DNA of 24,749 nt, taken from positions 1-24,749 of the forward strand of contig CAZFON010000001.1 in NCBI GenBank assembly GCA_964520185.1, in the 5' to 3' direction. The notes beneath the pieces were generated by a model that was not told the origin of the DNA, did not search any database, and was given only the letters and a program-made list of their open reading frames with translations. Below are positions 4,868 to 22,726 of this stretch, piece after piece. Position numbers and translations under genes: made by a program. The DNA comes from an uncultured Planctomycetales bacterium (GTDB taxonomy: Bacteria > Omnitrophota > Gorgyraeia > Zapsychrales > Fredricksoniimonadaceae). The stretch's first letter is position 1, and each line of letters begins with the position of its first letter.

Positions 4868-4967
4868 ACAAGCAACCTCACCTTACAGCACCCTGTTATC
4901 TTTGAGTTGAAGCTGAAAGATTCCAATAGCAGGTCGCACTTATGATATGAAAATTTGTAGAAATCTA

Positions 4968-4996: not shown

Positions 4997-5013
4997 ATCA
5001 GGGGGCATGTCTT

Positions 5014-5370: not shown

Positions 5371-5401
5371 CAACCAGGGCCTTACAGAGCTACTTTTAAG
5401 G

Positions 5402-5451
5402 ATTTTAGTTTAAATACCGCGGGATTAAAGGGTGATTAGAATAAAATTAAA
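5402..5451 (-). promoter_or_regulatory. Putative OmpR/PhoB-family binding site (three T(T/C)TAAT repeats, 11-bp period) plus -10 element
   Basis: Minus strand TTTAAT (5451-5446), TCTAAT (5440-5435), TTTAAT (5429-5424), then TAAAAT (5407-5402) 16 nt after the last repeat. Lies directly downstream of an OmpR-family RR/HK pair. Confidence 0.65.
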
Positions 5452-5454
5452 AAT

Positions 5455-6945
5455 CTATAATCCCGCCATCGTTGCAAGGGAGGTGATGGGAAGGGAAATA
5501 GTAAAAACTGTTCCTTGAGGGACATTGGACCTGACATGGATTTGCCCTCCATGGGCCTTGGCAATGGATTGGGAGATGCTTAAACCCAAGCCGAAGCCTC
5601 CGGTGCTGCGGGACTTATCAACCCTGTAAAAACGGTCAAAGATGCGCGGCAATTCGTCTTTAGGGATGCCGATGCCTGTGTCGGAAATGTCAATGTCCGC
5701 GCCGTCTTTGCCCCGGCGTAAATCAACGGATATCTTGCCCCCTGGGGGCGTATATTTAATGGCATTGTCCAGGATATTGAGGAAGAGCCTTTTAAGCTGC
5801 ACTTTATCAGCCATGATGTCCACTGTATGCGCACCGTTGTATTGGAGCGTAATGTCTTTTTGAACGGCCAATACCTTGATGACTTCCACGGCATCACTGA
5901 TCAACAGGTTCAAGTCAACAGGCTCTTCATGAAGGGCCGTGGTTTTCGCATCAAAACGCGCCAGAACAAGAAGGTTTTCCACGATCTTGCCCAAGCGATT
6001 GACCTCCTCAAGGTTGCTGTACAGGGCGCTCTCGTATTCCTGTGCGGAACGCACCTTTTTCAGGGTGACCTCCAGTTCACCTTTTAAAACAGACAAAGGG
6101 GTCTTGAGTTCATGAGAAATGTCTTCCATAAACTGCCGTTGGGTAGTAAAGGCCTCATCCAGACGGGCGATCATTTGATTGAATGTTTTGGCCAGCGACT
6201 CAATTTCATCCTTGCTGCCCGGGATCTCAAGCCGTAACTTCAAATTTTCCGCCGTGATCTGATGAATGGTAGCGATCATCTGGTCAACGGGCTTAAGGGT
6301 CATCTGGACCAAAAAAACACCGCTCAATCCGGTCAGGACAACGGTCAGCGGCAAAAGAAACATCAGGGAAAAACTTAAATTGCGCAAAAGCTCATGCGGC
6401 TGGGCTAAAGGTGAGGCCACCTGGACGATATAGGAAAGCCTCCTGTTTTCCAGAACCGGCTCTGTAAAGATCCTGAACAAGGACGGCTTGCCGTTGACCT
6501 CAAGATAGTCGTTATCAAAATGATTGCCCCCTTTTTTCACCGCAATAAAAATGCGCGCATTCAAATGCTCCGTGGGAATATTTCTGGAAGAAGCAATGGG
6601 GCCGCCATGGGCGTCAAAGATGCGCACGATGATGCTTATCAAATTAGGGTCACTGATCTTTTCGCCCACCCAACGCTTGGCGATCCTGATGAAATTGATA
6701 TTGTCCACCTTGGCAAAATGGATCTTGGAGGCGCCAGCTTCGGCGATGTCCATCTGCTCGGCGGCCCAATAGGTATCAATGGACTGCTCGATGCCTTTAG
6801 CGCGGGAGCGCAGGATATCATCGGTATCCTGGGAGATCTTTCGTTGGAGATTCTGGTAAAGCACCAGGCCGAAGATAAACAGGGCCAGGGACAGGATGAA
6901 CATGTGCCAAAGGACTATCTTGAAACGGATGGATTGAAAAAACAT
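5455..6945 (-). CDS. Sensor histidine kinase (2 TM, HAMP, HisKA, HATPase; CusS/CzcS-like)
   Basis: H-box EDISHELKTPL, N-box NILDNAIKY, G-boxes ISDTGIGI and GGFGLGLSI; two hydrophobic segments flank a periplasmic domain. Confidence 0.95.
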   Translation of the reverse strand: MFFQSIRFKIVLWHMFILSLALFIFGLVLYQNLQRKISQDTDDILRSRAKGIEQSIDTYWAAEQMDIAEAGASKIHFAKVDNINFIRIAKRWVGEKISDPNLISIIVRIFDAHGGPIASSRNIPTEHLNARIFIAVKKGGNHFDNDYLEVNGKPSLFRIFTEPVLENRRLSYIVQVASPLAQPHELLRNLSFSLMFLLPLTVVLTGLSGVFLVQMTLKPVDQMIATIHQITAENLKLRLEIPGSKDEIESLAKTFNQMIARLDEAFTTQRQFMEDISHELKTPLSVLKGELEVTLKKVRSAQEYESALYSNLEEVNRLGKIVENLLVLARFDAKTTALHEEPVDLNLLISDAVEVIKVLAVQKDITLQYNGAHTVDIMADKVQLKRLFLNILDNAIKYTPPGGKISVDLRRGKDGADIDISDTGIGIPKDELPRIFDRFYRVDKSRSTGGFGLGLSISQSIAKAHGGQIHVRSNVPQGTVFTISLPITSLATMAGL

Positions 6946-6948
6946 GTC

Positions 6949-7620
6949 TTACTTTTTGGCAAGCAGGTATCCCTTGCCGCGTACGGTATGGATCATCTTA
7001 TCCGAAAAACCGCTGTCAATTTTATTGCGCAGATAATTGATATAGACATCGATCACGTTGGTGAAGGTATCGAAATTGATGTCCCAGACATGCTCAGAGA
7101 TCATGGTGCGGGTGACGATGTTGCCGGTATTGCGCATCAGGTATTCCAGTAATGCATATTCCTTGACGGTCAATTCGATCTCGCGGCCGCTCCTGGTGAC
7201 CTTATGCGTCAACAAGTCCATGCACAACTCGTCCACCTTCAGCTGGGTCTGCACTCGGCCGTCTTTTTTACGCAAAACAACCCTCAGACGCGCCAGGAGC
7301 TCTTCGAAAGCAAAAGGCTTAGGGAGATAATCGTCCGCACCGGAATCCAGCCCCTTTACCTTGTCCTTGACCGTGTCCTTGGCTGTGAGCATGATGATAG
7401 GCGTCTGGTTGCCTTCTTTGCGCAAGGTACGGCAAAGCGTCAAGCCGTCTATCTTGGGCAGCATCAGATCCAGGATAACGGCATCATACTCATTGGTACT
7501 TAATAAAAAGTGCCCTTCCTCCCCGTCTTGGGCCACATCAACCGCATAGCCTTCTTCCTTAAGGCCGCGCTTGACGAACTGGGATATCTTCGATTCGTCC
7601 TCAACAACAAGTATTCGCAT
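6949..7620 (-). CDS. OmpR/PhoB-family DNA-binding response regulator (CusR/CzcR-like)
   Basis: MRILVVEDE, phospho-acceptor VILDLMLP, GADDYLPKPF, winged-helix NVIDVYINYLRNKID and IHTVRGKGY. Confidence 0.96.
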   Translation of the reverse strand: MRILVVEDESKISQFVKRGLKEEGYAVDVAQDGEEGHFLLSTNEYDAVILDLMLPKIDGLTLCRTLRKEGNQTPIIMLTAKDTVKDKVKGLDSGADDYLPKPFAFEELLARLRVVLRKKDGRVQTQLKVDELCMDLLTHKVTRSGREIELTVKEYALLEYLMRNTGNIVTRTMISEHVWDINFDTFTNVIDVYINYLRNKIDSGFSDKMIHTVRGKGYLLAKK

Positions 7621-7624
7621 AAAT

Positions 7625-8284
7625 TTAAACCATCCTGGTCAACTGTTGAATAAGTTTCTCTATCCCCTCGTTGAGCTCGCTGATCCGGGCATCAAGCATA
7701 TAACAAGGAGTGGTCACTACTTTATTGTTTTTATCGACCACGATGCTACGCGCATCGGTATTCGTGGTCCTGGCTCCGGTTTTCTGGAAAATCGCATTGA
7801 TCTTTTCATCCTGTCCGAAGGTCACGTTGACATTTTTCAACAGATGAGCGATGATCACGGGAGATATGCACAAAGCACCTATCGGTTTCTTTGCCGCGTG
7901 CATGGAGCACACCGCCCTTTGGACCTCAGGCAAGACCGTCATTTTATCACCATCCCTGGCAAAGGTGCAAAGATTATGCGCCACCCCGTTGCCGCCGGGC
8001 ATTACCAGGATGTCAAAATCTTCCTGGCGGAAATCCGTCAAAGGCTTGATCCTGCTGCGCGCAATACGGGCCGCTTCAAGAAGCACATTACGCTTTTCTG
8101 TCATTTCCTCATTGGTCAGGAAATTAAGTACCCGGGCATAGGGCACATCAGGGGCAAAACACTGGTAATGGTGGCCTGCTTTATCGATATTCAAGAGCGT
8201 TAACACGGATTCATGGATCTCTGCCCCGTCCTTATTACCACAGCCGGCCAGGATCACGGCGAAGGACAACGTATTGTGGTCCAT
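7625..8284 (-). CDS. elbB: ElbB/ES1-type glyoxalase (DJ-1/PfpI superfamily); likely start MDHNT at 8284
   Basis: LAGCGNKDGAEIHE, MPGGNGVAHNL, ALCISP, VVTTPCYM. GGAGGG upstream of the ATG; 1-nt overlap with the upstream stop. Confidence 0.9.
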   Translation of the reverse strand: MDHNTLSFAVILAGCGNKDGAEIHESVLTLLNIDKAGHHYQCFAPDVPYARVLNFLTNEEMTEKRNVLLEAARIARSRIKPLTDFRQEDFDILVMPGGNGVAHNLCTFARDGDKMTVLPEVQRAVCSMHAAKKPIGALCISPVIIAHLLKNVNVTFGQDEKINAIFQKTGARTTNTDARSIVVDKNNKVVTTPCYMLDARISELNEGIEKLIQQLTRMV

Positions 8285-8559
8285 CAATCCCTCCAAAAAT
8301 ATAAGGCAGCAGTCAAGGCAATGCCGATGATAAACACCAGCCATGTGTTGCCGACAAAGAACGTATAAAGCATCAGCACAATGCCTATCACCATCGGCCG
8401 CCAGCTTTTTTCTCTTTTACCATGCAAAAAAGCAAACCAGCCGATAAGGCCGAAAACGGTACCGCCAATAAGGTTCCACCAATTAAGACCATCCGGCCCC
8501 ATGAGATTGGACAATCCATAAGCGCTTAAAACCGCATTGAGGGTCTTATCATCAGGCAT
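8284..8559 (-). CDS. Small membrane protein (about 3 hydrophobic segments), function unknown
   Basis: 91 aa with pattern FGLIGWFAFLHGKR..WRPMVIGIVLMLYTFFV..WLVFIIGIAL; fits tightly between neighbours (3-nt gap and 1-nt overlap). Confidence 0.75.
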   Translation of the reverse strand: MPDDKTLNAVLSAYGLSNLMGPDGLNWWNLIGGTVFGLIGWFAFLHGKREKSWRPMVIGIVLMLYTFFVGNTWLVFIIGIALTAALYFWRD

Positions 8560-8562
8560 GAT

Positions 8563-9207
8563 TTACTCCAGAATAATAACTGGTTGATATTGCTGCTTGA
8601 GCCAGTGCAAGAGCCTGCGTATGTTCCTTTGGTTAAGTGCCACACAACCAGAGGTCGGACTGTCATACCTGCGCCAAACATGTATAAAAATAGCGCTTCC
8701 GGCGCCCCTGACAACAGGATGCCTATTATACCCTATGACTATCCCATATTGGTAGAGATTATCAAAACGCTTCATCCTTTCAAAGGAGCCCGCTGGAAGA
8801 GGACCTTTTACCCATTCATTATATTGCACGGAAGTTACATCATCCACCCAAAAATCATCTGTGCTGGCCTGACGGTACGAAAGGCCCGTGTCAATCGACG
8901 GAGCATATCCAAAAGCTGTTTCCAGGGGATATATACCCGACGGTGTTTTGCCGTCCCCTTCCCTTTTGGCGTTGGCTGCGGCCAGACCGTTCTTGCCGAT
9001 CATCGCGCTTGCCAACAATTCCCGGCGCCAAGAGCTTCCCTGCCTTTGCCAGGTACTTAAAGAAGCCCGACAAGACCCATTTTTAACAGGAGAGACGATG
9101 ATAACTTGATGAATAGCGGTATCAAGGTCCCCTAACGGTTTTGGAACGGTTGTACAACAGCCCTGCAAGGATATCAGGATCAAATATAAAATGAGCTTAG
9201 ATGTCAT
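8563..9207 (-). CDS. L,D-transpeptidase-family (YkuD-like) lipoprotein; likely start MTSKL at 9207
   Basis: Lipobox LQGC, KREGDGKTPSG, GSAIFIH and TSGCVAL (His/Cys catalytic motif). Confidence 0.88.
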   Translation of the reverse strand: MTSKLILYLILISLQGCCTTVPKPLGDLDTAIHQVIIVSPVKNGSCRASLSTWQRQGSSWRRELLASAMIGKNGLAAANAKREGDGKTPSGIYPLETAFGYAPSIDTGLSYRQASTDDFWVDDVTSVQYNEWVKGPLPAGSFERMKRFDNLYQYGIVIGYNRHPVVRGAGSAIFIHVWRRYDSPTSGCVALNQRNIRRLLHWLKQQYQPVIILE

Positions 9208-9209
9208 GG

Positions 9210-10613
9210 CTATTTGGGTGGACAATAGATGGATTCCTGATATTCCTCGTAATCCGTATTGACAGCCCAGAGATCGACCTTTTCTCCTTTGCCGATATAA
9301 TTAGCGGCCAAGAGCCCCATCAGGATGCTATGGTCCTGGTTGTTGTATTTAAAAGCGCCATATCTGCCTATCACCATCATCCCTTTTATTTTTTCGAGAT
9401 AGCTTTGGATCATCTTCAAATTATTTCTATACCCTTTGAAGTAAACAGGATAACACCGGGGGATCCGAACGACATCCCCGTTCATGATGCGCCCTTTTTT
9501 AAATTTTAATTGCTCCAATTCGCTCGAAGCAAGTTCAATAAGCTCCTCTGATGAGGCTCTCCACAGGGCGTCTTCGTCGTTACACCAGTACTCCATGGCC
9601 ACAATGCTTGTCTTTTCATCCCCATACATCTCCGGGACCCAATTCCTGAAATTGGTGATCCTTCCGGTCTTGACCTCGGGCGATTGCACATAGATCCACT
9701 GGTCAGGGAATAAATCAGTGCTATCGACATTCAAATAAACCAAAATCGTGTTCCTGAACTTCAATCCCTGGGCCGCCTTTTGGATGTCCTCTGGGACGTT
9801 TTCCAACCGGCTGACTAACAAAGAAAGGGGCATTGTTGAGATAATATGGTCATAACGATCACAGGCCTTCCCATCGGCCAACGCGAGGCCAACGGTCCTG
9901 TCGCCTTCGAGCATGACCTTATCAACGGGTGTTTTATAAAACACCTTGCCGTTATGCTTCTCAACGAAATCGGCCATACGCTGATATACCGAACCCGTAC
10001 CCTGGCAAGGATAGGCAAATTGCTCGAGGAGCGTGCGGTGCTTGTTAAATTTGTCCTTGAAAAAAGCATTGAAGATGGCGCTGGACAAGGAAAGTTTCTT
10101 GATCCTTTGCGAGGCAAAATCAGCATCGATCTGGGAACAAGGCATGCCCCATAATTTCTCACTGTAAGGTCTGAAAAAAATATCAAAAAGGCGCCTGCCA
10201 AACCTACGGGTCACCCAAGCTTCGAAGCCGCCGTCTTGTTTGGTGGGAACAATGGACTCTTTCAAATAATACAGGACGCAAACGACGGATTGTGCCATCC
10301 CCAGATTGCTTAAGGCATTCAAGGGGCTGAGCGGATAGGTGTAAAATTTCTGCTTATATAAAATACGCGTCAAGCGACGGACTACTTTATAATCACTGCC
10401 CACCACTTCAAGCCACAGGTCATTGACCCTTTTGTCCTTACTGAAAAAACGGTGCGGCCCCAGATCCACCCGCTGGTTCCATAAACAGATCGTCTTGGCC
10501 ATCCCCCCCGGCGTCTCGCCGGCCTCAAAAACATGGACCTCAATGCCCTGCTTGGCTAAAGCATAGGCCGCCGTGATCCCTGCCGGTCCTGCACCGATGA
10601 CAGCAACCTTCAT
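9210..10613 (-). CDS. FAD/NAD(P)-dependent oxidoreductase (HemY-like / UDP-galactopyranose-mutase-like superfamily), substrate unknown
   Basis: VAVIGAGPAGITAA dinucleotide fold, DLGPHRFFSKD, YSEKLWG, C-terminal GRYGAFKYNNQDHS. Confidence 0.85.
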   Translation of the reverse strand: MKVAVIGAGPAGITAAYALAKQGIEVHVFEAGETPGGMAKTICLWNQRVDLGPHRFFSKDKRVNDLWLEVVGSDYKVVRRLTRILYKQKFYTYPLSPLNALSNLGMAQSVVCVLYYLKESIVPTKQDGGFEAWVTRRFGRRLFDIFFRPYSEKLWGMPCSQIDADFASQRIKKLSLSSAIFNAFFKDKFNKHRTLLEQFAYPCQGTGSVYQRMADFVEKHNGKVFYKTPVDKVMLEGDRTVGLALADGKACDRYDHIISTMPLSLLVSRLENVPEDIQKAAQGLKFRNTILVYLNVDSTDLFPDQWIYVQSPEVKTGRITNFRNWVPEMYGDEKTSIVAMEYWCNDEDALWRASSEELIELASSELEQLKFKKGRIMNGDVVRIPRCYPVYFKGYRNNLKMIQSYLEKIKGMMVIGRYGAFKYNNQDHSILMGLLAANYIGKGEKVDLWAVNTDYEEYQESIYCPPK

Positions 10614-10634
10614 TTTTCTATGGACCTCTATCTT

Positions 10635-12059
10635 TTAATGGATACCCTTGAACAAATAAAGATAATAATGCTCATCCTGCAATTGGCCCTTGGTAAAACT
10701 ATCCAGCTTTTGGACCGAAGGCGACAATAATGAATTCTCCAAGGGATGGCTTAAGGCCAACACCGCGTCTTTCTTGAATTGCCGGGAGATCCGTTGGGCT
10801 TGATCAAGCATTTGCTGCGACGAAAATTCGGCTGCTTTATTATCATAAATGTAAAATGTCCCCCAACGCTCCCTGACTAAATAAAAAACCGGCTTGTTTA
10901 AATATCCTGAGATAGGGACACCTCCGGAGCCGGCCACAATGATGGGCAACTGGTCCAGCTTATGCATTTTAATATATATGGCCGCATCCTTGCCATCGGA
11001 AAAAGTTAAATTCAAATTCGACTTGTACGCACCCAGTCCCACGGCCAATTGGATAAACAATACAACGGTGATAAGCCTATTGGCCCAGGAAGGGATTTGT
11101 GGGCAAATCCACCAGCAAGCAACCAAAAGAATGAATAAATGGCCCATGTGCCTGGAAAATAAATTGTTGATCATGGAGAAAAATAGGACAAGCCCCAGGA
11201 CGCCGATGGCATATAAAAATAAGACTGATCCTTTCCGATAAAAAAAGAAAAAAGACAGAAAGAAAAATAAATATGAAAATTGCAGTAAAGATACACTGAT
11301 CATTCTTATGCTTCCCCAATAAGGGAAATAGGCCAGTATCAGACTCTTGAAAAACGGCCGCGGTCCAGGCCATGAAATAAGCCCTTTGATCCATCCGCTG
11401 TCTGGCAAGGGGTTCATGATGATGAGACCCGTAAAAACAGCGCTGATCAATAAAAAAAGGGCCACCAAAGCCTGGGGACGTTTATGTTCCAACAGCACCG
11501 GCATTTGAATGGCTTCCAGGACCAAAAAAGCCGCAAAAGCAACGGCCAGGATCAACCCCAGGATACTAGTGAAATTAAGCAAAATAAGGACCAGGGCCAA
11601 CAATAAATAATCTCTTTTTTGTTGGCGCGCTAATATACAAAACAAAAAAATAAAAAACACTCCCAGCACGTAACTCCTGCTGATCAAAGCAAATTCATAG
11701 AATAAAAACCATCCAAAGATCAGGAAGACCTTCTGTAATCTGCTAAAAGGGGCAAACTTAAGGACAAGCCAGGCATTAATGCTGGCCAGACCCAAATGTA
11801 GAAATTGCATGCTCTTCGGGTTGGAAGTAATATTTTTGAACCAAAAAAGCAGGAAATACCATAAGGGAGGGTGACTTTCATAACGAAGGTTATAAAGCAA
11901 TTCAGGGATGGAATGGCTGTAGCGGGCGATCAGCCACGCCTGCAGTTCATCACGCCACAAATCATGATGCAAGACGCCAAAGATCCCTAATATAATAAAA
12001 AGAACAGAATAAATTTCTACAAAAAAACGGCCATAAAACCACGTTAAAGATTTAATCAT
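10635..12059 (-). CDS. GT-C-fold integral membrane glycosyltransferase (PMT/ArnT-like); likely start MIKSL at 12059
   Basis: Many TM segments; first-loop WRDELQAW (DE motif) and YESHPPLWY (HPPL); soluble C-terminal tail. ATG overlaps the upstream stop by 8 nt. Confidence 0.78.
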   Translation of the reverse strand: MIKSLTWFYGRFFVEIYSVLFIILGIFGVLHHDLWRDELQAWLIARYSHSIPELLYNLRYESHPPLWYFLLFWFKNITSNPKSMQFLHLGLASINAWLVLKFAPFSRLQKVFLIFGWFLFYEFALISRSYVLGVFFIFLFCILARQQKRDYLLLALVLILLNFTSILGLILAVAFAAFLVLEAIQMPVLLEHKRPQALVALFLLISAVFTGLIIMNPLPDSGWIKGLISWPGPRPFFKSLILAYFPYWGSIRMISVSLLQFSYLFFFLSFFFFYRKGSVLFLYAIGVLGLVLFFSMINNLFSRHMGHLFILLVACWWICPQIPSWANRLITVVLFIQLAVGLGAYKSNLNLTFSDGKDAAIYIKMHKLDQLPIIVAGSGGVPISGYLNKPVFYLVRERWGTFYIYDNKAAEFSSQQMLDQAQRISRQFKKDAVLALSHPLENSLLSPSVQKLDSFTKGQLQDEHYYLYLFKGIH

Positions 12060-12966
12060 CTTGGGCCCCTTCTCGATGGCATGCATGGTCGATAGCATCA
12101 AAAAAACCGGGATCTGCGGCGTAATCCAGCTTCCTGGCAAATAATTTTTCCGAGCCGGCCATCAGACCCAATTCTTGACGGGACAATGGGCATGGATGCG
12201 GGAACTTTTCCGACGGCCATCTCGAGTAGACCAGATTATCATTAATGATCCTGTCCTTTTGAGACGAATTCAACAAGACCGTATGGATAAAAGTTTCATC
12301 CGGTACCAGTGTGAACCTAAAAAATGAGACGAACTTTTGATGCGTACTTACGAACTCCAGGATATATTCGACGGCTTCTTTGTCCAGGCACCACCACTGC
12401 CAGCCGCCGTAAGGCTGAAGGTCAAAGACATACCTTCTTTGAATGATCCCGTTTAAACCGATCTTTTTCAGAAAAGGACGCAGTCGCCAGTACATCAAGT
12501 GCTCTAAAAAAGGCAGTCGCATCAAATGCCAGTAGCATAACCGGCCCATGCCCCCCTCTTCCATGTCCCAATGGTGCATGGATGTCGGCAGCTTCCAATA
12601 TTCTAGAAAAAGATGGCCCTTGTTTTTCTCAAAATATTCCTGGATAGCCTGCTTGCTCTTGATGGGATAATGGGTGCCGGACAATAAGAGGACATAATCA
12701 AAATCAAAATTTTTTTCACGGATAAACGCCATGGCATTAAGCTCGACCTGAACAATGCTAAAATCCCCCCAATACACCTCCATCCGCGCGAGCAGTTCTA
12801 CGTTGGTTTTACCCTTGAAGGCCTCTTGGTACCTGCGAAAAATATCCGGCTTGGTCTTTTTATCAACGTGGATGAGAAACCTGCTTTCGGGTCCGTCCAA
12901 CCTTTGCACCATCCTAGAAACAAGTGCAGGTTCTTCATGGGCGATAATGATATAAATGAATTTCAT
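12052..12966 (-). CDS. Core-2/I-branching-type glycosyltransferase (GT14-like)
   Basis: YIIIAH, FLIHVDKK, VYWGDFSIV, LLSGTHYPIKS, GWQWW, VPDETFIHT, LFARK are typical of this family. Confidence 0.9.
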   Translation of the reverse strand: MKFIYIIIAHEEPALVSRMVQRLDGPESRFLIHVDKKTKPDIFRRYQEAFKGKTNVELLARMEVYWGDFSIVQVELNAMAFIREKNFDFDYVLLLSGTHYPIKSKQAIQEYFEKNKGHLFLEYWKLPTSMHHWDMEEGGMGRLCYWHLMRLPFLEHLMYWRLRPFLKKIGLNGIIQRRYVFDLQPYGGWQWWCLDKEAVEYILEFVSTHQKFVSFFRFTLVPDETFIHTVLLNSSQKDRIINDNLVYSRWPSEKFPHPCPLSRQELGLMAGSEKLFARKLDYAADPGFFDAIDHACHREGAQDD

Positions 12967-12972
12967 GACGTT

Positions 12973-13776
12973 TTATTTAACAGGATGCACCAATTTATTT
13001 TTAAGCCCTTTGAAAGACGAATGTTCAAAATGAAAACGCAAACTGCCGTCCGTCAATGAAACATTGGTTGAATCTATATAAAACAAATTCCGCTGTCCCC
13101 AACGCACAAATCTGCCTTTCCCTCCGAAATCCCTTATCTTAAACCCTCCTTGATAAAGCAGGGTCGCGATCAATGCCTCCTGATGCCCCTTCCAACCATG
13201 TCCATGCATCCTGTCGACATACTGCAACGCCCTGTGAGAGATACGGTAGATGGGGTTAAACGATCGCAACGTTTGACGGCGATCAATATTCCCTTCAGGA
13301 GAGGATAAGGTAGGCCAGTAATACCAGGCCGGCTCTTCTTTGTAAGTGCGTATGTGGGCTGTGATAAAATCGTCACCGGCATCCCTAAAATGAGAAAAAA
13401 ACTTCTTCCAATCCCCGATGAACCTAACATCGTATTCAATGTTCCAATAATAGCTGTAGTTCCGCTGGCGCCCAAAGCAGATGACAGGCCAATGGTTGTG
13501 TCCCGGGATAAGAGGCCCATCCCGTCGGATATCTTCCAAAAAAGCCAGATCGTGAATGTCTTTTTCTGAAAAGGTCCAATGAGGGCACTTCAATATCTCC
13601 TGGTCAACAGGCCTGCCGTCCCGGTTATCGTAAGAAATAAAACAATCGGCCCATCCGGAGCAGGCATCCTTGATTCTCTGGAATTCCTCCAAGGCCTTGT
13701 CTGAAAATTGATGCATGGCAAAAAGGACCGCCTGTTTTCCGGCAGGAACAGCCTGTTTTCTAAAAAAATGGAACAC
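12973..13776 (-). CDS. Hypothetical GT-A-like protein resembling DUF3405
   Basis: YSYYWNIEYDVRFIGDW, DFITAHI, RSFNPIYRIS, GHQEALIAT. GTG start with GGGGGAG upstream, abutting the GT31-like stop. The family assignment is from memory of the motif only. Confidence 0.6.
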   Translation of the reverse strand: MFHFFRKQAVPAGKQAVLFAMHQFSDKALEEFQRIKDACSGWADCFISYDNRDGRPVDQEILKCPHWTFSEKDIHDLAFLEDIRRDGPLIPGHNHWPVICFGRQRNYSYYWNIEYDVRFIGDWKKFFSHFRDAGDDFITAHIRTYKEEPAWYYWPTLSSPEGNIDRRQTLRSFNPIYRISHRALQYVDRMHGHGWKGHQEALIATLLYQGGFKIRDFGGKGRFVRWGQRNLFYIDSTNVSLTDGSLRFHFEHSSFKGLKNKLVHPVK

Positions 13777-14589
13777 CTATCTCCCCCGCCTTCCGCACAA
13801 GGTAAAGAATATAGAACGCATGATGTTCGATAACAGGTTCAACGCATATTTTAAAATAAGCATCATCGTAAAAAATACATTGTTCCGACCTTGCAACCAG
13901 TCCATCTCAGAGGGCGAACAAGGATGGAAGGAGGCGGCAAAAAAAATTTCTCTGACAAAATGCCTGTTCAAAGTAAACTTTTCTTTAAGGGACAAAAGGA
14001 CCGATACAGACATCCCCTTGCCTCTTAAGGTATCGCCGATCAATTTATCTTCATACAATTCCTTATCAATATACTGGCCATGATCATTAATGACGCATCG
14101 AAGCGCTTTTTTGCTTAAGAAATAGCCGGAGCCTCCCATCATCCAAGGCCCGTAAAATACGCCCGGGTAGGCTACATTCTTCAAATGAGATCCGACATGT
14201 TTTTTATGCCACTTGGTATCAACGTGGTCCATGTCCTTATATTGAAAGCCGGCGTAATCAAGGGCATCAAAAGGCAATTTCAATAATTCAGGCACATTGA
14301 CGTAGGTATCATCATCGCATTTATAAATATGGCTATAATCCATATGTTCATCGACAAAGCGCAAGAAAGCGATGGTCTTATGCGGAAGATCCAAATAATC
14401 ATCCCCGCAATCCAAATAAAGAATGTCTCCCTCAATGGCCGGCTTCTTATCAGGCCGGCCGACCAAAAAACAAGCCCTCAGCCCCAACCTCGAACAATCT
14501 TTTAACCAACTCCGGCGCACCCCATCATGCCTTTGGGGATACTTGGCACAGCCAAGAATGCCAATAATTAAGGATGATGAATTGTTCAT
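13777..14589 (-). CDS. GT31-like (galactosyltransferase/Fringe-type) glycosyltransferase; likely start MNNSS at 14589
   Basis: VRRSW, DDYLDLPHKT, YKCDDDTYVNV (DDD motif), GGSGYFLS, EDKLIG, FHP. ATGA overlap with the upstream gene. Confidence 0.85.
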   Translation of the reverse strand: MNNSSSLIIGILGCAKYPQRHDGVRRSWLKDCSRLGLRACFLVGRPDKKPAIEGDILYLDCGDDYLDLPHKTIAFLRFVDEHMDYSHIYKCDDDTYVNVPELLKLPFDALDYAGFQYKDMDHVDTKWHKKHVGSHLKNVAYPGVFYGPWMMGGSGYFLSKKALRCVINDHGQYIDKELYEDKLIGDTLRGKGMSVSVLLSLKEKFTLNRHFVREIFFAASFHPCSPSEMDWLQGRNNVFFTMMLILKYALNLLSNIMRSIFFTLCGRRGR

Positions 14590-16229
14590 GCTTTCAGGTG
14601 TTGTTTCCATTTTTCCTGAAATAACAGATAGTTTTTGTGCCACAGTTCTTCGCGATGAGGAAGTTTATGGCTGGTTGCCTTGCCGATATGGCGAACAAAG
14701 ACCTTCTCAGTCACATAAATATCATAGCCGGCTTTCCAGATCTTGCATTGGAAGTCCAGGTCCTCTCCACTGGCGGGCGAAAATTCCCCACTAAAACCAC
14801 CGACTTGCAGAAAAATATCCCGTTTAAGAAAAAAGGCAACCCCCGCACAGTTGGGCTTTGACCAGGGTTCAGTTTTAATGATCTTATCGCCCTTTCCCTT
14901 TCTCTTATTGCCTTCCAACAAAATATTATTTGTACAAGGGATAAGCAGGCCGCAGTTATCCAGGCTTTCATATTCAGCAACCAACTCCCTGCCCCAATCT
15001 TCAAGAGGCCAGACAGTATCGTTATTCGTCAAAAGGATATATTTACAGCCTGCCATCTGGACGGCTTTATTAAACCCTTTTCCGAAGCCCTGATTTCCCT
15101 CAAATTTGAAATAATGTTCCGTTTGTTCCGCTAGAAAGACGGACGTCGAAGGCAGAGATCCATTATCAACGATGACCAACTCATAAATGATGCTCCGGTT
15201 GGAGCGAAGGGACTTCAAAAACCTCTTGGTGAAATCCAGCCCATCCCAAACCAGGGTGCAAACACTGATCTGAGCTTCGGCCTTCAGATGCTTGGTTTTC
15301 GAGAAAACGATCGGAAAACACCAATGCCCAGTACAAAACGCACTGTAGCGAAGCATAAATCCAGGATAGGCGCTCAACCATTGTCTCCAACCACGCGATC
15401 GTCCATAGGAATTCCAATATGCGCCTAACAATAAATACCCGAAAAAACACAAGGAAGCTACATCATCAAAAATCTTATTTCCCCATCCCAGCATCCAACT
15501 CACAAAAGCGGCCAACAATAAGCAGGAACCGTAAGATATAAAAGGAAATTGCCTATGCCTGATCTTAAAATAAGCAATGGAATATCCGTAACAAAACTGC
15601 TGAGTAAGGGTAGCCTTAAAACCATTTCGTTGATAATGGGTAACCAAGGCTTCTTGGGTATAATAGACCTTTTTATTCTGCTTGTGGCAGCGCTCGCAAA
15701 TGTCCCAATCATCCGCTGCCAGCAATAAACGTTCGTCAAAAGGATTATCTTCAAGGAATTTCTTCCTAAAGGCCATGTTACAGCCCCTGATCTGTGCCAC
15801 ATATCCGTTATGTGCGGCAATAAAATCCCTGTCTTGATTGACCATGGACCAATAGCCCCGGCTCGGAGGAGATTTTATCTTCCCCCCTACGATCATCGTG
15901 TCTGCATCAAGCATAAATGGTCTTAGCAACTCCTCCAACCATTGCCGGTCAACAATACAATCCGAATCCGTAAAAGCCACCACTTCCCCACGGGCCAACG
16001 ATACGCCTATATTACGGGAAAAACTTAAGCCCTGGTTGGACCCGTTTGAGTGAAAAGCTATCCTGGGGTCCTTCATGGCGGCTATCTTCTCTTTGGTGGC
16101 ATCATAAGAGCCGTCATCAATAACAATAACTTCATATTCTTCTTTAAAATCCTGATCTAAGACCGAATGCAGGCACCGCTCAATAAAGTCCTCTCTATTA
16201 AAAACAGGGATGACAACGCTGACAAGCAT
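14586..16229 (-). CDS. Two-domain GT2 glycosyltransferase with an internal hydrophobic segment
   Basis: Domain 1: VVIPVFNRE, IDDGS, NQGLSFSRN, FTDSD. Domain 2: IVDNGS, NQGFGKGFN, LTNND, EDLDF, VRHIGKAT. Hydrophobic stretches lie between the domains. Confidence 0.92.
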   Translation of the reverse strand: MLVSVVIPVFNREDFIERCLHSVLDQDFKEEYEVIVIDDGSYDATKEKIAAMKDPRIAFHSNGSNQGLSFSRNIGVSLARGEVVAFTDSDCIVDRQWLEELLRPFMLDADTMIVGGKIKSPPSRGYWSMVNQDRDFIAAHNGYVAQIRGCNMAFRKKFLEDNPFDERLLLAADDWDICERCHKQNKKVYYTQEALVTHYQRNGFKATLTQQFCYGYSIAYFKIRHRQFPFISYGSCLLLAAFVSWMLGWGNKIFDDVASLCFFGYLLLGAYWNSYGRSRGWRQWLSAYPGFMLRYSAFCTGHWCFPIVFSKTKHLKAEAQISVCTLVWDGLDFTKRFLKSLRSNRSIIYELVIVDNGSLPSTSVFLAEQTEHYFKFEGNQGFGKGFNKAVQMAGCKYILLTNNDTVWPLEDWGRELVAEYESLDNCGLLIPCTNNILLEGNKRKGKGDKIIKTEPWSKPNCAGVAFFLKRDIFLQVGGFSGEFSPASGEDLDFQCKIWKAGYDIYVTEKVFVRHIGKATSHKLPHREELWHKNYLLFQEKWKQHLKA

Positions 16230-16250
16230 AGTTTTTAAGTAAAAGCGTTT

Positions 16251-18143
16251 CTATTTTTTTAAAAAATTATACAATAAATGCTGTTTTTGGGGATCTTTAA
16301 AGAAATCTTTATGTATAAAAAGATACGCCTGAGAGCTTCGCTCAATAAGGAAATATTCAAGATTAATAACCCGTATCTCTTTAAGAATGGCTGGAAGATC
16401 GGAATCACTATTCCCTTGCTCTTTCTCTTTACTTCTTAGAAAAAGCAACACATCCGGCATGAGGGGTCTATCATGCTCAAGGATCCATGACCTGTTCTGT
16501 AATTTCGTCCCATAGAGAGTTGAGTTGACCATGTCAAACGTCGGATGATTGAGCGTTGATATGGCACAGTATAGAGGTTTGGCATCATCCAAGGTCAAAT
16601 AGTCCACCACACCTAACGCCGTAAAACTGTCTGGATCCAATTTGACCTGTAAAAAATAATTTCTATTGATAAGGGCCTTGATAGGCCCATCAATGCGGTA
16701 ACTGGGATCATTATTGCTTAAATTAACAACGGCCAAGACTGCAAATAGAATGCATGATATCCTGATGGCCCTGCTAAAAAAAACTTTTTTGTCAAAGATC
16801 ATCATGGCTTGCCCTAAAGCCAGAAGACCCAGGGCCACCATAAAAATAGAATAACGGGACGTCCAAGAATAATCTTGTAAGGGAACCACCAATAATTGTC
16901 CTAAGCCAAGAACAAGCAGCGAATACACCCAAAAATCAAACCAATTTCTTCGTGCCATGGATCTTACCCATACCAACAACCAAGCCGGAAAAGCCAAGGA
17001 CCAGAAGATCAAACCATAACCGCCATGCAGTGTTCCTAAGCCAATATCCTTCCAGTTAAGAAATAATTTGTGAGGGATAACCTTCATAAATCTCCAAAGA
17101 TCAACGTTTTGGGCATGCTCAGTAAATATCCCCAGGCTGTCTTGAGAAAAAGGCACTGGATAAATGGGCGTTTTTAATGCCCAGAGATTACGCAGATACC
17201 AAAAGCCGCCGGCTATGATAAAAATAATGATAAAACCGAACCATCGTTTCAGCGTTACGGGCCTCGAACATAAGAACGGCAGCACCGAAAGGATAAATAT
17301 AGCCTCATTATATTTCATGCCCCATAACAACCCGGCAGCCAAGGCTGTTGAATAAAAGTACAATAAACGGCCGGTTTTATAAAACACCCCAGCCGCATAC
17401 ACAACAGTTAAAAAGAAAACAGCAATAATGACATCGATGTAACAACAGCCCATTTGAGACAGGACCACAGGGGTCAATAGGAACAATAAGCTGACAAATA
17501 GGGAGATCTTTGACCCCAGACCGAGGATCCTTCCCAGCCCGTACATGACGGCCGTTCCCCAAAAGGCCACTATTAATTGAACGCTGTTGACTAATTGCTG
17601 ACTATGAAGGACTATCGCCGGCCACATAAAAAGAAGTTCGGCATTTTCTGGAAAAGCAAAACGTTTGTTAACTTCAACGGGTAATAGATATATCTTATGG
17701 TCAATGATATATTGAAGGATAGGGGGCAAATGATAGGAAAGCTCGTCGCCATTCCTAGGAGGGAAAAAACAAATCGCAGTGACCATCCATATCAATACGA
17801 AGCCGGCAAGAACAAGCAAAAAGATGTTCTCCCAGGCCATCACACTTTTAATACCCTCCCTGATCGTTCGGCATTCTTGAAGCCATAAAGCTCCCCCATC
17901 TCTTCCCCATATGCCTAAGGTCAGCAAGATCGTAGCAATTCCTAAATTAAGAAAGATTAAATCAGGCAAATATAAAACTTTGATGATGCCGAGGAACAGC
18001 TCCGTGAGGATGACCTGACCAAAGCTCCAAAGACCAGCAAGTATGATCTTTTGATGAAAATTGCTAGGGACCGGCCTGGTCAAGAAAAAATAATTACTGA
18101 AGAAAATAAATGCAGATACGGCCAATAAAAGTAGGATCATCAT
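16251..18143 (-). CDS. GT-C-fold integral membrane protein (ArnT-like putative glycosyltransferase)
   Basis: 630 aa, many TM segments; loop motif GDELSYHLPP, then FPENAELL, YIDV, GMKY, WYLRN, SRY. Confidence 0.72.
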   Translation of the reverse strand: MMILLLLAVSAFIFFSNYFFLTRPVPSNFHQKIILAGLWSFGQVILTELFLGIIKVLYLPDLIFLNLGIATILLTLGIWGRDGGALWLQECRTIREGIKSVMAWENIFLLVLAGFVLIWMVTAICFFPPRNGDELSYHLPPILQYIIDHKIYLLPVEVNKRFAFPENAELLFMWPAIVLHSQQLVNSVQLIVAFWGTAVMYGLGRILGLGSKISLFVSLLFLLTPVVLSQMGCCYIDVIIAVFFLTVVYAAGVFYKTGRLLYFYSTALAAGLLWGMKYNEAIFILSVLPFLCSRPVTLKRWFGFIIIFIIAGGFWYLRNLWALKTPIYPVPFSQDSLGIFTEHAQNVDLWRFMKVIPHKLFLNWKDIGLGTLHGGYGLIFWSLAFPAWLLVWVRSMARRNWFDFWVYSLLVLGLGQLLVVPLQDYSWTSRYSIFMVALGLLALGQAMMIFDKKVFFSRAIRISCILFAVLAVVNLSNNDPSYRIDGPIKALINRNYFLQVKLDPDSFTALGVVDYLTLDDAKPLYCAISTLNHPTFDMVNSTLYGTKLQNRSWILEHDRPLMPDVLLFLRSKEKEQGNSDSDLPAILKEIRVINLEYFLIERSSQAYLFIHKDFFKDPQKQHLLYNFLKK

Positions 18144-18317
18144 TTAGCGTAGGTGCATCAAATGCAACAATAACAACCACAGGGCCTGACAAATATAAAG
18201 AAAACTTTTGAACCCCTCCAGGTAGACCTGTCCGTTGATGTACAATTGGAAAAAGGCAAAGGTGACCATCAAACAAGCCAAAAGTAAGAACTCATTCTCC
18301 ATACGGTATTTAGTCAT
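18144..18317 (-). CDS. Unannotated 57-aa hydrophobic protein (below the ORF-track cutoff)
   Basis: MTKYRMENEFLLLACLMVTFAFFQLYINGQVYLEGFKSFLYICQALWLLLLHLMHLR*. AAGGA upstream; the TAA abuts the GT-C ATG; fills an otherwise empty gap. Confidence 0.6.
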   Translation of the reverse strand: MTKYRMENEFLLLACLMVTFAFFQLYINGQVYLEGFKSFLYICQALWLLLLHLMHLR

Positions 18318-18335
18318 GTATCCTTGATAACCCTT

Positions 18336-19550
18336 TTATGCCTGGCCGTGGGACATCCAGTTCTTGCCTCCCAATATACGTGCCACCAGCATGCTGCAGA
18401 CATTGTCCCCGATGGCATTCACCATCGTTGCGGGCGGGTCAACAAGGGTGCCTATCATGGAAATAATGGGCATGGCAATGACCGGAAAACCATACAGCGT
18501 GACGATCATTAATTCACCAAGGAATCCTCCACCGGGGATCCCGCTCATCACCGTACCGCTCAAAAGGGCCACCCCCACGGCGGTCATCATGGCCCAAGGT
18601 GTGGAAAAATTCATATGGAACAATCCGAAAAGTACCGCAATTTTTAGGACAGCGGAAAGACAGGATCCGTCCATGTGGATGGTCGAGCCTATGGGAATGA
18701 CCATCTCGCGGATGTCCCGCGGCACACCGACGCGATTTGCTGCTTCCAAATTCAAAGGGATCGTAGCCATGCTGCTGCTCGTGGCCAGGGCTGTCACGGC
18801 AGCAGGCATGATATTGGGCCAAAAGACCTTTAGCCCTTTGGGGCCCCCTGCCAGAAAAGCATAGAAAGAAAAACCGATGAAAAAATAGGCAATGGCTACC
18901 GGATAGTAGATCGTCATGGCACGCACGTAGGTACCCAACAACTGAGGCCCTAACACACCGATGAGATAGGCAAAATACGCTCCCAATCCGACAGGCGCAT
19001 ACAACATGATATAGCCAATGGCTTTCATCATCACTTCATTGCCGGACAACAAGAAAGAAGTGAACGCTTTTGATCTTTCTCCCAAACTGCAGGCGCTAAG
19101 ACCTATCAACACGGCAAAGATGATCAGGGCCAGCATGTTCTTTTTGGAAAAAAGATCAGCAAAATCAGCAACCGTGAATGCCTTGACGATCTGTTCGGAA
19201 ACATTTAACTGTTGGAAATGCACATCAGCCGGTAAATGGATATTAATGCCTTCTGCCGGAGGGTAAACCTTTACCGCTATCAACATGACCACTGAGGCGA
19301 ATATACCGGTCACGGTAAAAACTATCATCATCCAGCTGATGATCCTGCCCAGCCGCTTCAGGTTGTTCATGGCCGCTATTGCCGATGAAATGGAGAAAAA
19401 AACCAGCGGCACTACGATGGTAAAAAGTAAGTTTAGGAAAATATCGCCAAAAGGCTTGAAGCAAACTGCTTTTTCTTTAAAGACCAGCCCCAACAAGCAC
19501 CCTATCGCGATAGCGCCAAGCAGGACCAAGGAGGAGCGAAAATGTTTCAT
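18336..19550 (-). CDS. Dicarboxylate/amino acid:cation symporter (DAACS, GltP/SstT family); likely start MKHFR at 19550
   Basis: FKPFGDIFLNLL, ALATSSSMATIP, IPIGSTIHMDGS, DPPATMVNAIGD. ATGA overlap with the Nudix stop. Confidence 0.93.
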   Translation of the reverse strand: MKHFRSSLVLLGAIAIGCLLGLVFKEKAVCFKPFGDIFLNLLFTIVVPLVFFSISSAIAAMNNLKRLGRIISWMMIVFTVTGIFASVVMLIAVKVYPPAEGINIHLPADVHFQQLNVSEQIVKAFTVADFADLFSKKNMLALIIFAVLIGLSACSLGERSKAFTSFLLSGNEVMMKAIGYIMLYAPVGLGAYFAYLIGVLGPQLLGTYVRAMTIYYPVAIAYFFIGFSFYAFLAGGPKGLKVFWPNIMPAAVTALATSSSMATIPLNLEAANRVGVPRDIREMVIPIGSTIHMDGSCLSAVLKIAVLFGLFHMNFSTPWAMMTAVGVALLSGTVMSGIPGGGFLGELMIVTLYGFPVIAMPIISMIGTLVDPPATMVNAIGDNVCSMLVARILGGKNWMSHGQA

Positions 19551-20038
19551 AACCATCCCAGAAAGACAAAAGTACAAATGCTCTTAGCATCCCTGAGTTC
19601 GCCCTGGTCCATGAGTTTTCGGATCTGACTTTTTGTCATAGGGATAGTCTCAATGACCTCATATTCTTCCGGTTGGGCCTGGGTCATCGTCAGGCCCTCA
19701 GCTTTAAAGATATGGATTATCTCCGTCGAGTATCCGGGTACCGGATAAATATAACCCAATTTAGCCAACTTCCTGCATTTAAGGCCGGTCTCTTCACATA
19801 GTTCCCTGCGGGCACAAGTAATGATCTTCTCGTTGGGATCAATGGTGCCCGCCGGCAATTCATATATATATTTATTTAGCGCCGGCCGGAATTGGCGCAT
19901 CATCACCACGGTATTCTTGTTTAAGAGCGGGGCGATGATAACGGCGCCGGGATGGGTGATCACCGTGATACGGACGGTACGGCCGTTGGGGAGCTTTACC
20001 GGATGGTTTCTTTTGATTTCAAGTTTACGTCTTGCCAT
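19547..20038 (-). CDS. Nudix hydrolase (ADP-ribose pyrophosphatase NudF-like)
   Basis: Intact Nudix box GTIDPNEKIITCARRELCEETGL, HPGAV, RQFRP..IYELPAG. Confidence 0.9.
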   Translation of the reverse strand: MARRKLEIKRNHPVKLPNGRTVRITVITHPGAVIIAPLLNKNTVVMMRQFRPALNKYIYELPAGTIDPNEKIITCARRELCEETGLKCRKLAKLGYIYPVPGYSTEIIHIFKAEGLTMTQAQPEEYEVIETIPMTKSQIRKLMDQGELRDAKSICTFVFLGWL

Positions 20039-20623
20039 TTATACCACCGGGAGGGTTTGGGCCATGCTGGGGCGCCTGGAAATTTCCTCAAACCATTGCA
20101 ACAGTTTTCCCTGTGCCTTCAGGTGAGGCAGGCGGAAATGGAGATACCCCATGGCTGAAGCAACGGCGAGGGGTGCCAGGTTGAATTCTTTAAGCTTGGA
20201 CAAATGTTGCTCGATATATGCATAGGCTGACCGGATATTTTTCTCCTGGCCAGCGATAAAATCCTCATGGAAATCCTTAGGGTGCCGGACCTTCTCCATA
20301 TAAAGGTTGATGGCCGTGACCATTAAATCATCGGCAAAGGCCTCCCATTTCAACACCTCAAGACGCAAGCGTTCTTGCCGGGGGATCATGATAACCTTAT
20401 CATCAAGGTTGTCTAAGTATTGACAGATGATCGGGCTATCATAGATCGTGGTACCGTCATCTAAAACCAGGGTGGGGACCTTGCCCAAAGGATTGGCCAA
20501 AAGCAACCGTTGTGATTTTTGTTGCAGGTCTTCATCGATCAGATCCAAAACAATGTTTTTCTCCAAAGCGATCACCCTGGGTTTGCGGGCGAAGGGAGAA
20601 CGTTTTGTATAAAGTAATTTCAT
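20039..20623 (-). CDS. Glutathione S-transferase family protein
   Basis: MKLLYTKRSPFARK, NPLGKVPTL, YDSPII; all-helical C-terminal domain. Confidence 0.9.
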   Translation of the reverse strand: MKLLYTKRSPFARKPRVIALEKNIVLDLIDEDLQQKSQRLLLANPLGKVPTLVLDDGTTIYDSPIICQYLDNLDDKVIMIPRQERLRLEVLKWEAFADDLMVTAINLYMEKVRHPKDFHEDFIAGQEKNIRSAYAYIEQHLSKLKEFNLAPLAVASAMGYLHFRLPHLKAQGKLLQWFEEISRRPSMAQTLPVV

Positions 20624-20659
20624 ATCCAACCCTCTCTTTTTTCCATCATTCTATAATAG

Positions 20660-22697: not shown

Positions 22698-22726
22698 AAA
22701 AATTTATGAGAGAATAGTAAATACTT

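Follow-up and report, generated by a model that had tools for sequence, protein, structure and literature searches.

Positions 9210 to 18317 of the 24,749-nucleotide (nt) stretch of contig CAZFON010000001.1 analyzed here, called the window at its full length, are filled by seven large minus-strand open reading frames (ORFs) and one small ORF. This set of genes appears to be a composite glycosylation block. Its conserved part consists of the small ORF and the gene for a 630-amino-acid (aa) glycosyltransferase (GT) of the GT-C class, and an accessory cassette of about 7 kb follows directly behind that gene. The cassette encodes four or five GT-A domains, a second GT-C and a homologue of UDP-galactopyranose mutase (UGM). 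We give about an even chance to the reading that it is an exchangeable cassette for diversifying an envelope glycan of the lipopolysaccharide (LPS) type, with furanose a probable constituent and with GT-C steps in the periplasm. The cassette also appears to have no functional link with the STT3-like gene at 5 kb distance, which an earlier note on this DNA, made from the sequence alone, had taken for an oligosaccharyltransferase (OST) of the same pathway. The genes of the block, the extent of the insertion and the first gene behind it are as follows.

18144..18317, minus: small ORF, 57 aa (52 aa from the second ATG, 18302)
16251..18143, minus: probable GT-C, PMT_2/ArnT-like, polytopic membrane protein, 630 aa
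14586..16229, minus: GT2-GT2 fusion, 547 aa, Pfam Glycos_transf_2
13777..14643, minus: GT31, Pfam Galactosyl_T, likely start ATG 14589
12973..13776, minus: DUF3405-like protein, predicted GT-A fold, 267 aa
12052..12966, minus: GT14 (core-2/I-branching, xylosyltransferase-type), Pfam Branch
10635..12140, minus: predicted GT-C-fold membrane protein, 501 aa, without a Pfam model, likely start 12059
9210..10613, minus: FAD enzyme, PRK07208 family, eukaryotic-type UGM homologue, 467 aa
9210..16250: accessory insertion relative to the locus L015, six genes
8563-9225, minus: YkuD L,D-transpeptidase, probable start ATG 9207, lipoprotein-type signal ending LQGC

An accessory cassette at a variable site

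The window was compared with 20 loci from GTDB species representatives, anchored on the family of the 630-aa GT-C. The closest of these, L015, is a metagenome-assembled genome (MAG) whose leuC, ilvD and aroC are 80-90% identical to those of the window. It is collinear with the whole window, in the order STT3-like gene (67% identity), trypsin-like gene, GNAT, PIG-L, GST, NUDIX, an extra 406-aa PMT_2-like ORF (7300-8650), SDF, GT-C (53%), YkuD, 91-aa protein, DJ-1, response regulator, histidine kinase, leuCD, ilvD, aroC. The GT-C gene of L015 directly adjoins YkuD, six of the seven large block genes are absent from the locus, and DNA similarity to the window is interrupted between 9060 and 16791. 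With that site empty in L015, the genes at 9210-16250 are an insertion relative to it. What surrounds the insertion is a conserved string of envelope genes: SDF, small ORF, GT-C, YkuD lipoprotein, 91-aa protein, DJ-1, OmpR-type response regulator and histidine kinase.

Other relatives fill the same site in different ways. L009 carries a GT-C, a 250-aa GT2 and a second GT-C before YkuD; L013 and L014 show the small ORF after SDF, followed by three GT-C paralogues in tandem (635 aa; L013 2677-6729); and the GT-C of L011 is flanked by UGM-like genes. The copy number of PMT_2-like GT-C genes varies among relatives, as the extra copy in L015 also illustrates. The 630-aa GT-C itself is more diverged (53-57% identity) than its neighbor genes (63-91%). 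Because relatives fill the site differently and this enzyme is more diverged than its neighbors, the locus appears to be a hot spot of glycan diversification.

The window sequence was found in rhizosphere metagenomes. In four of these, the depth over the block equals that over the flanks (about 3-6x), and their contigs contain no joint that skips the cassette. The possibly host-like glycan of the earlier note finds no support in this habitat, as nothing points to an animal host.

The cassette recurs in other lineages

The GT31, DUF3405 and GT14 genes follow one another in the same order in five further lineages, which makes six with the window. The DUF3405 proteins of these five are 69-76% identical to one another and 60-64% identical to the window protein, and members of the GT2/GT31/DUF3405/GT14 module elsewhere are generally about 50-70% identical to those in the block. 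In the five lineages, the triad is adjoined by a separate gene that corresponds to either half of the GT2 fusion. The N-terminal half, a GT2 domain with hydrophobic segments, is found in L039, L045 and L047 (49% identity), and the C-terminal half, a GT2 domain with a Glyco_transf_7C-like end, in L043 (70% identity). Homologues in L039 and L043 are 50-57% identical for GT31 and 55% identical for GT14. This recurrence suggests that the cassette is a transferable module.

Long flanks were available for L039 and L043 only. In both, the module is situated between heme and ATP-synthase genes, and its neighbors are DUF2079, a UbiA prenyltransferase, further GT2 or GT4 genes, ABC2_membrane with ABC_tran, and one or two GT9 (heptosyltransferase-family) genes. 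The DUF2079 and UbiA genes lie at 1-2276 in L039 and 6001-8357 in L043; this pair recalls the mycobacterial donor system for polyprenyl-phosphate pentose (DPPR-synthase) and, with the ABC-2 exporter, the galactan-export genes. No STT3 gene occurs within 10 kb of the module in L039 or L043. By gene content, these ABC-2/GT9 loci look LPS-like. The earlier note had asked whether homologous blocks sit in characterized LPS or exopolysaccharide loci with known products, and the answer goes largely against the note's model, with the one reservation that the loci are LPS-like in gene content and are not characterized loci with known products.

The GT-A enzymes

The 547-aa protein matches Pfam Glycos_transf_2 over two stretches (163.8 bits) and consists of two GT-A domains, each with a DxD-type motif; a hydrophobic linker connects them (about residues 230-310). 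The earlier note named its glycosyltransferase families rightly and left this fusion out of its title. The N-terminal GT2 domain passes the cut-off of Glyco_transf_21, the ceramide glucosyltransferase family (24.7 vs 21.7 bits), and also matches Glyco_trans_2_3, Glyco_tranf_2_3 and the lipid-glycosylating families HpnI and CruG. The best NCBIfam matches are MftF, EpsD and AglG, none of them lipid-specific. A search of PDB sequences with the fusion gave no GlfT-like match. A GtrB/ArnC-like role was considered and rejected, as the matches to GtrB (5EKP, 5e-5) and dolichyl-phosphate mannose synthase (3e-4) are weak compared to a generic GT2 (1.5e-18).

GT31 and GT14, both named by the earlier note, are confirmed by scores above the curated Pfam cut-offs. 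The GT31 protein matches Galactosyl_T with 55.3 bits (cut-off 23) and carries a DDD motif, 'CDDDTYV', at residue 110; its best matches among PDB sequences are B3GalT6 and B3GNT2. The GT14 protein matches Branch with 94 bits (cut-off 23.4) over residues 5-262, and its PDB sequence matches are XYLT1 (2.5e-14) and C2GnT (4e-11). For both proteins, the closest relatives with a solved structure thus come from animals. Both families have been characterized mostly in eukaryotes.

The DUF3405-like protein is probably what the earlier note called it; its own score with PF11885 is 20.9 bits over 40 residues only, below the cut-off of 25. Most of its homologues (35-42% identity) carry PF11885 and are named DUF3405 domain-containing by NCBI, and the bacterial family is about 260 aa long. 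To our knowledge, DUF3405 is an uncharacterized family; a literature search on 'DUF3405' found no papers. The structure model of the window protein (pLDDT 91.6) has a GT-A fold, and the best Foldseek matches of the model are the GT31 enzymes B3GNT2, B3GalT5 and GfsA (probability 1.0, TM-score about 0.47). In the 'IEYDV' motif of the family, E114 is invariant and D116 nearly so. Judging from the model, the protein is a probable glycosyltransferase.

DUF3405 was also seen in another setting. One soil lineage (L074 5634-8049, also L106, L111, L116 and L121; loci 80-99% identical at the nucleotide level) has a DUF3405-like gene followed by a homologue of eukaryotic-type UGM (Trypanosoma cruzi UGM, 1.7e-36); upstream lies an MsbA/PglK-like ABC gene. 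Such a second association with a UGM-type mutase raises the possibility of furanose donors for DUF3405 proteins.

Neither a signal peptide nor a membrane anchor was predicted for the GT31, GT14 or DUF3405-like protein, and all three should act in the cytoplasm.

A eukaryotic-type mutase homologue in the block

The earlier note had found no gene for nucleotide-sugar synthesis in the block. This claim does not hold, because the flavoenzyme at 9210-10613 is a homologue of UGM, which also makes furanose a probable part of the glycan. The protein matches NCBIfam NF005548 (PRK07208.1-4; NCBI name 'hypothetical protein') with 538 bits, well above the cut-off of 389, and has an FAD-binding GxGxxG site, 'GAGPAG'. 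Its closest PDB matches are the UGMs of T. cruzi (4.1e-26, residues 2-440) and Aspergillus fumigatus (about 1e-24), while bacterial UGMs match at 1.6e-7. The residues that form the active site of A. fumigatus UGM have been established by structure and mutagenesis (PMC3322874). Identical residues align in the flavoenzyme with His63, Phe66, Arg182, Trp315, Arg327, Tyr453 and Asn457 of the A. fumigatus enzyme. The flavoenzyme is thus a probable pyranose/furanose mutase for nucleotide sugars rather than a generic oxidoreductase, and its activity would most simply be the interconversion of UDP-galactopyranose and UDP-galactofuranose (UDP-Galf). As a bacterial homologue of eukaryotic-type UGM with an intact active site, it is a candidate for study.

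Two GT-C families without detectable sequence kinship

The two GT-C transferases of the earlier note were both supported, each by a different kind of evidence. The 630-aa protein, the anchor gene of the locus, has no Pfam match of its own even at E<=10, and the support comes from its relatives. PMT_2 is matched by 14 of 16 full-length relatives (28-58% identity), homologues carry PF13231 or PF02366, members of the family match both the PMT and PMT_2 models, and distant homologues are named ArnT-like by JGI. The homologues in L015, L009 and L013 are 53-57% identical to the window protein. In loop 1, 'GDELSYHLPP', the residues D133, Y137 and H138 are invariant in the family. A homologue 40% identical to this GT-C was also seen in a different cluster in L004-L006 (about 1650-11050 in L005). 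The order there is MBOAT, acyl carrier protein, radical-SAM/AMP-binding fusion, 458-aa protein, the GT-C, small ORFs, second PMT_2 protein, and then MdoG and an MdoH-like GT2. The content of that cluster suggests acylated periplasmic glycans.

The 501-aa protein is called as a 483-aa gene in the record, and the likely start at 12059 would give 474 aa. None of its 42 homologues carries a Pfam domain. The AlphaFold model (pLDDT 92.8, pTM 0.92) matches GT-C enzymes in all of its top 15 PDB structures, with ArnT (5F15) the best (TM-score 0.52), and with DPY19, Emb, AftA/B/D, STT3A, Pmt1 and ALG3 among the others. In the sequence 'WRDELQAW' after the first membrane segment, D46 is nearly invariant and E47 is invariant. 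From this model, the protein appears to be a GT-C of an undescribed family that has no Pfam model. Elsewhere, the family occurs in arrays with other GT-C genes and not with GT14 or GT31.

Neither GT-C family, searched as a profile against PDB sequences, gave a match. The two families were also compared with each other by hhalign, which returned a probability of 1.4%, meaning no detectable sequence kinship.

The STT3-like protein and its neighbors

Two further genes, on the plus strand, are needed to judge the proposed link to an OST.

22727-23416, plus: trypsin-like (Trypsin_2) protein, 229 aa, N-terminal hydrophobic segment
23426..24749, plus: STT3-like GT-C, N-terminal 441 of 815 aa, Pfam STT3 (context only)

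The STT3-like gene starts 5.1 kb from the block on the opposite strand, with genes for SDF, NUDIX, GST, PIG-L, GNAT and the protease in between. The third GT-C enzyme that the earlier note placed about 5 kb away is therefore there, as an STT3-family gene, but the WWDxG site that goes with the name OST is absent. The full-length protein of 815 aa is found on L002 (7303-9750) and matches PF02516 with 54 bits over model positions 27-379 of 405. In the window protein and in the L015 copy, the site reads WWAPG; by its position after the last membrane segment and by the PglB sequence, it probably corresponds to WWDxG. The Asp of WWDxG binds the +2 Ser/Thr of the sequon. A scan of 1.84 billion representative proteins yielded 766 relatives (clusters, E<=1e-3), typically 820-860 aa long, of which 122 were full-length. 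WW[P/S/A/C/T]PG is present in 117 of these 122 and WWD in none. The C-terminal domain presumably resembles that of PglB. A comparison of the full-length protein with PDB sequences matched no solved OST, and a literature search for WWxPG motif strings found no paper.

Because 117 of 122 relatives read WWxPG and none reads WWD, the protein is best described as a GT-C of the STT3 family whose subfamily is large and apparently undescribed, and the label N-oligosaccharyltransferase is not justified for it. The group may be an undescribed class of STT3-type enzyme. Among the remaining loci of the 630-aa GT-C comparison, an STT3 match occurs only in L015 (0/18 otherwise) and the cassette in none. More generally, a bacterial 'OST' beside glycosyltransferases is not evidence for N-glycosylation; the one considered here is a member of a WWxPG subfamily, and its conservation does not depend on that of the cassette.

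A gap of 9 nt separates the trypsin-like gene from the STT3-like gene that follows it, and the pair is conserved in L015 (70% and 67% identity). Between the STT3-like gene and SDF, a minus-strand string at 19547-22697 encodes a GNAT, a 479-aa PIG-L-family deacetylase, a GST and a NUDIX protein, and the same string occurs in L015 and L013. It could serve a pathway for a low-molecular-weight thiol (MshB/MshD-like) or the deacetylation of lipid-linked GlcNAc.

Layout, junctions and composition

The block lies within a long run of minus-strand genes. Upstream, from high to low coordinates, are GNAT, the PIG-L-family deacetylase, GST, NUDIX and the SDF symporter, and past the flavoenzyme are YkuD, the 91-aa protein, DJ-1, the OmpR-type response regulator, the histidine kinase, leuC, leuD, ilvD and aroC. 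The junctions within the block are tight. The small ORF and the 630-aa GT-C meet at TAAATG, 21 nt separate the GT-C from the GT2 fusion, and the fusion and GT31 (start 14589) overlap by ATGA. GT31 meets the DUF3405-like gene at TAG-GTG, a gap of 6 nt precedes GT14, and GT14 and the 501-aa protein (start 12059) overlap by ATGATTAA. The flavoenzyme follows after 21 nt, and its stop is 2 nt from the start of YkuD. With this spacing, the block genes are probably translationally coupled and operon-like, and we infer co-transcription from the spacing only.

The GC content is 0.449 at 9226-16250 and 0.414 at 16251-18317, compared to 0.504 and 0.484 in the flanks. GC at third codon positions (GC3) is 0.46-0.55 in the block and 0.57-0.66 in the flanks, with the flavoenzyme (0.59) as an exception. 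The seven coupled genes plus a small ORF, and their AT-richness, had both been claimed before, with a GC and codon profile as a suggested check; the ORFs, the operon-like junctions and the two composition measures agree with these claims, apart from the GC3 of the flavoenzyme. The reported absence of Wzx, Wzy, an ABC exporter and GtrA from the block was reproduced by family searches, which detected none of them. The 24.7-kb window as a whole is also devoid of Wzx, Wzy and an ABC exporter, and it contains no priming phosphoglycosyltransferase (Bac_transf, Glycos_transf_4), PglK, polymerase or ligase. A search of the whole window for Rfam families and tRNA found neither.

The small ORF encodes a hydrophobic protein with two predicted membrane segments. 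It is called as a gene on L002, a 55-aa homologue that is 56% identical occupies the same position in L013, and the L015 copy is shortened by a stop codon.

The sole perfect sigma-70 consensus in the scanned region 4800-24000 is at 4968-4996 on the minus strand (TTGACA, 17 nt, TATAAT). Its place is the 587-bp gap in front of leuC, and the leuCD-ilvD-aroC unit probably begins here.

Explanations for the cassette

For the reading as an LPS-type envelope-glycan cassette, we infer the donor, acceptor, order of steps and product as follows. The mutase would supply a UDP-furanose, most simply UDP-Galf. At the inner membrane face, the GT-A enzymes would build up or lengthen an oligosaccharide on an acceptor with a lipid anchor. 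This acceptor would be either lipid A-core or a polyprenyl-diphosphate carrier, with genes elsewhere providing for the priming and export of the latter. Once the chain is translocated, the two GT-Cs would transfer further residues to it on the periplasmic side, with polyprenyl-phosphate sugars as donors, and the product would be a strain-specific envelope glycan of the LPS or lipooligosaccharide (LOS)/O-chain type. The LPS-type assignment is suggested by the ABC-2/GT9 context of the relatives, the ArnT-like GT-Cs, the hot-spot locus and the downstream two-component system. The block's lack of a priming transferase, flippase and polymerase would follow if the acceptor is lipid A-core, since no dedicated flippase is then needed. 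The broader claim of the earlier note, a surface-glycan pathway that combines cytoplasmic GT-As with extracytoplasmic GT-Cs, is supported by these results.

Several points weigh against this reading. The empty site was shown by one close genome, L015, of which 21.8 kb of a 36.6-kb contig was inspected, and the cassette could be located elsewhere in that genome. A search for insertion scars found only short repeats at chance level, with no integrase, transposase or mobility genes, and a scan for promoters and terminators inside the block gave nothing better than shuffled controls. The GT9 and ABC-2 genes in L039 and L043 are suggestive of LPS, not diagnostic, and the assignment to LPS draws on homologous cassettes in other organisms and on analogy. 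The 24.7-kb window contains no lpx, waa, kdt, O-antigen ligase or polyprenyl-phosphate sugar synthase gene. On the furanose side, the histidine loop of the flavoenzyme reads Gly-Pro-His in place of Gly-Gly-His. GT31 was also considered as a GfsA-type galactofuranosyltransferase that would partner the UGM, and this was rejected because GfsA is absent from the PDB sequence matches of GT31 at E<=1.

Of the alternatives, a free glycolipid is the first to consider and is unlikely. Here, the N-terminal GT2 domain would start the glycan on a membrane lipid (diacylglycerol, ceramide or hopanoid-type), and GT31, DUF3405 and GT14 would extend it to a glycosphingolipid-like head group. The matches of this domain to Glyco_transf_21, HpnI and CruG, the hydrophobic segments behind it and the lack of a priming transferase or flippase in the block are consistent with such a product. 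However, the lipid-family matches are much weaker than the generic GT2 match and overlap it, the best NCBIfam matches are not lipid-specific, and the homologous cassettes sit beside ABC-2 exporters and GT9 genes.

An arabinogalactan-like wall polymer, in which the UGM and a bifunctional GT2 make a furanose chain on a polyprenyl carrier and the GT-Cs branch it with polyprenyl-phosphate sugars as in Corynebacterineae, is quite unlikely. The block does bring two GT-Cs together with a UGM homologue and a GT2 of two domains, AftA, AftB, AftD and Emb are among the structural neighbors of the 501-aa protein, and the cassette of L039 and L043 lies beside UbiA, DUF2079 and an ABC-2 exporter. However, the structural matches are generic to the GT-C fold, with ArnT the best, neither a GlfT-like PDB match nor a DprE-type epimerase was found, and the neighboring L,D-transpeptidase is part of the backbone and not of the cassette.

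Protein O-glycosylation appears improbable to a similar degree. In this case, secreted or envelope proteins would be O-glycosylated (mannosyl-type transfer) by the PMT_2-like GT-C(s), with a glycan that the cassette provides or extends. The family's matches to PMT and PMT_2, the models of protein O-mannosyltransferases, and the tandem GT-C arrays in relatives argue for it. PMT_2 also covers ArnT-type lipid A transferases, though, and no acceptor protein is evident. Since they have no signal peptide or membrane segment, the cytoplasmic GT-As would be unable to extend a periplasmic, protein-bound sugar.

The pgl-like N-glycosylation pathway implied by the earlier note, in which an STT3-type OST transfers to asparagines, en bloc, a lipid-linked oligosaccharide made by the GT-As and decorated by the GT-Cs, has just as small a probability. 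The nearby STT3-family gene and the lack of a polymerase or ligase in the block speak for it, and in Campylobacter, GT-A/GT-B genes do cluster with pglB. Against it, the synteny check that the note had proposed shows that the block and the STT3-like gene are not co-conserved: L015 keeps the STT3-like gene with no cassette at the locus, the cassette elsewhere sits beside ABC-2 and GT9 genes with no nearby STT3, and 18 of the other loci with the GT-C family have no STT3 match. Moreover, the Asp of WWDxG is missing from the protein and its 122 full-length relatives, the gene is on the opposite strand behind six unrelated genes, and neither a priming transferase nor a flippase was found in the window.

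It is very improbable that the triad and the eukaryotic-type UGM build a Galf glycan of eukaryote-like architecture, with DUF3405 as an unrecognized family of furanosyltransferases and the WWxPG STT3-like enzyme using the glycan on a non-sequon acceptor.

As an LPS-type diversification cassette, the element would belong to a well-known kind, the strain-variable envelope-glycan cluster. What appears to be new is the bacterial GT31-DUF3405-GT14 triad, the GT-C family without a Pfam model, the bacterial homologue of eukaryotic-type UGM and the nearby WWxPG STT3-like subfamily. A three-gene module kept across six lineages offers a tractable route to the products of GT31, GT14 and DUF3405, and the Pfam-less GT-C family is a further candidate from the block.

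Comparison with known systems

Eukaryotic GT31/GT14 pairs, as in poly-N-acetyllactosamine I-branching, the proteoglycan linker and plant arabinogalactan proteins, resemble the block in that both CAZy families stand side by side. Unlike in eukaryotes, the block enzymes have no membrane anchors. The similarity is low (E 1e-5 to 1e-14), and the linkages that the block enzymes make may differ from the eukaryotic ones.

The Campylobacter pgl locus (PglB with PglA/C/H/I/J/K) also has a bacterial STT3-family gene near glycosyltransferase genes. There, however, the OST lies inside the cluster with the priming enzyme PglC and the flippase PglK, whereas here neither is present and the STT3-like gene stands apart and has no WWDxG.

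Mycobacterial arabinogalactan synthesis (Glf, GlfT1/2, AftA-D, Emb, UbiA/Rv3806c and a Wzm/Wzt-like exporter) likewise has a cytoplasmic UGM and GT2, followed by outer GT-C steps. In contrast, the mutase of the block is of the eukaryotic type and not Glf, homologues of GlfT and DprE are lacking, and the organism is a MAG that appears to belong to the PVC group.

The ArnT/ArnC and GtrA/GtrB/GtrC systems share with the block the periplasmic GT-Cs of ArnT/PMT_2 type, and the downstream OmpR-type two-component system on the same strand recalls, by analogy only, the control of arnT by PmrAB. Unlike in those systems, no ArnC/GtrB-type synthase or GtrA/ArnEF flippase was detected beside the GT-C genes, and the block GT-Cs have no sequence match to solved GT-Cs.

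In contrast to variable LOS and Wzm-Wzt O-antigen loci, the window has no gene for lipid A, Kdo, heptose, a ligase or an exporter, and the enzyme families of the block (GT31, GT14, DUF3405, two GT-Cs and a eukaryotic-type UGM) are unusual for characterized LPS loci. The likeness lies in the architecture. As in the LOS classes of Campylobacter jejuni, a low-GC run of glycosyltransferase genes varies in content at a fixed site between conserved flanks. Priming transferase, flippase and polymerase are missing from the block as they are from LOS-type loci, and the homologous cassettes stand beside ABC-2 and GT9 genes.

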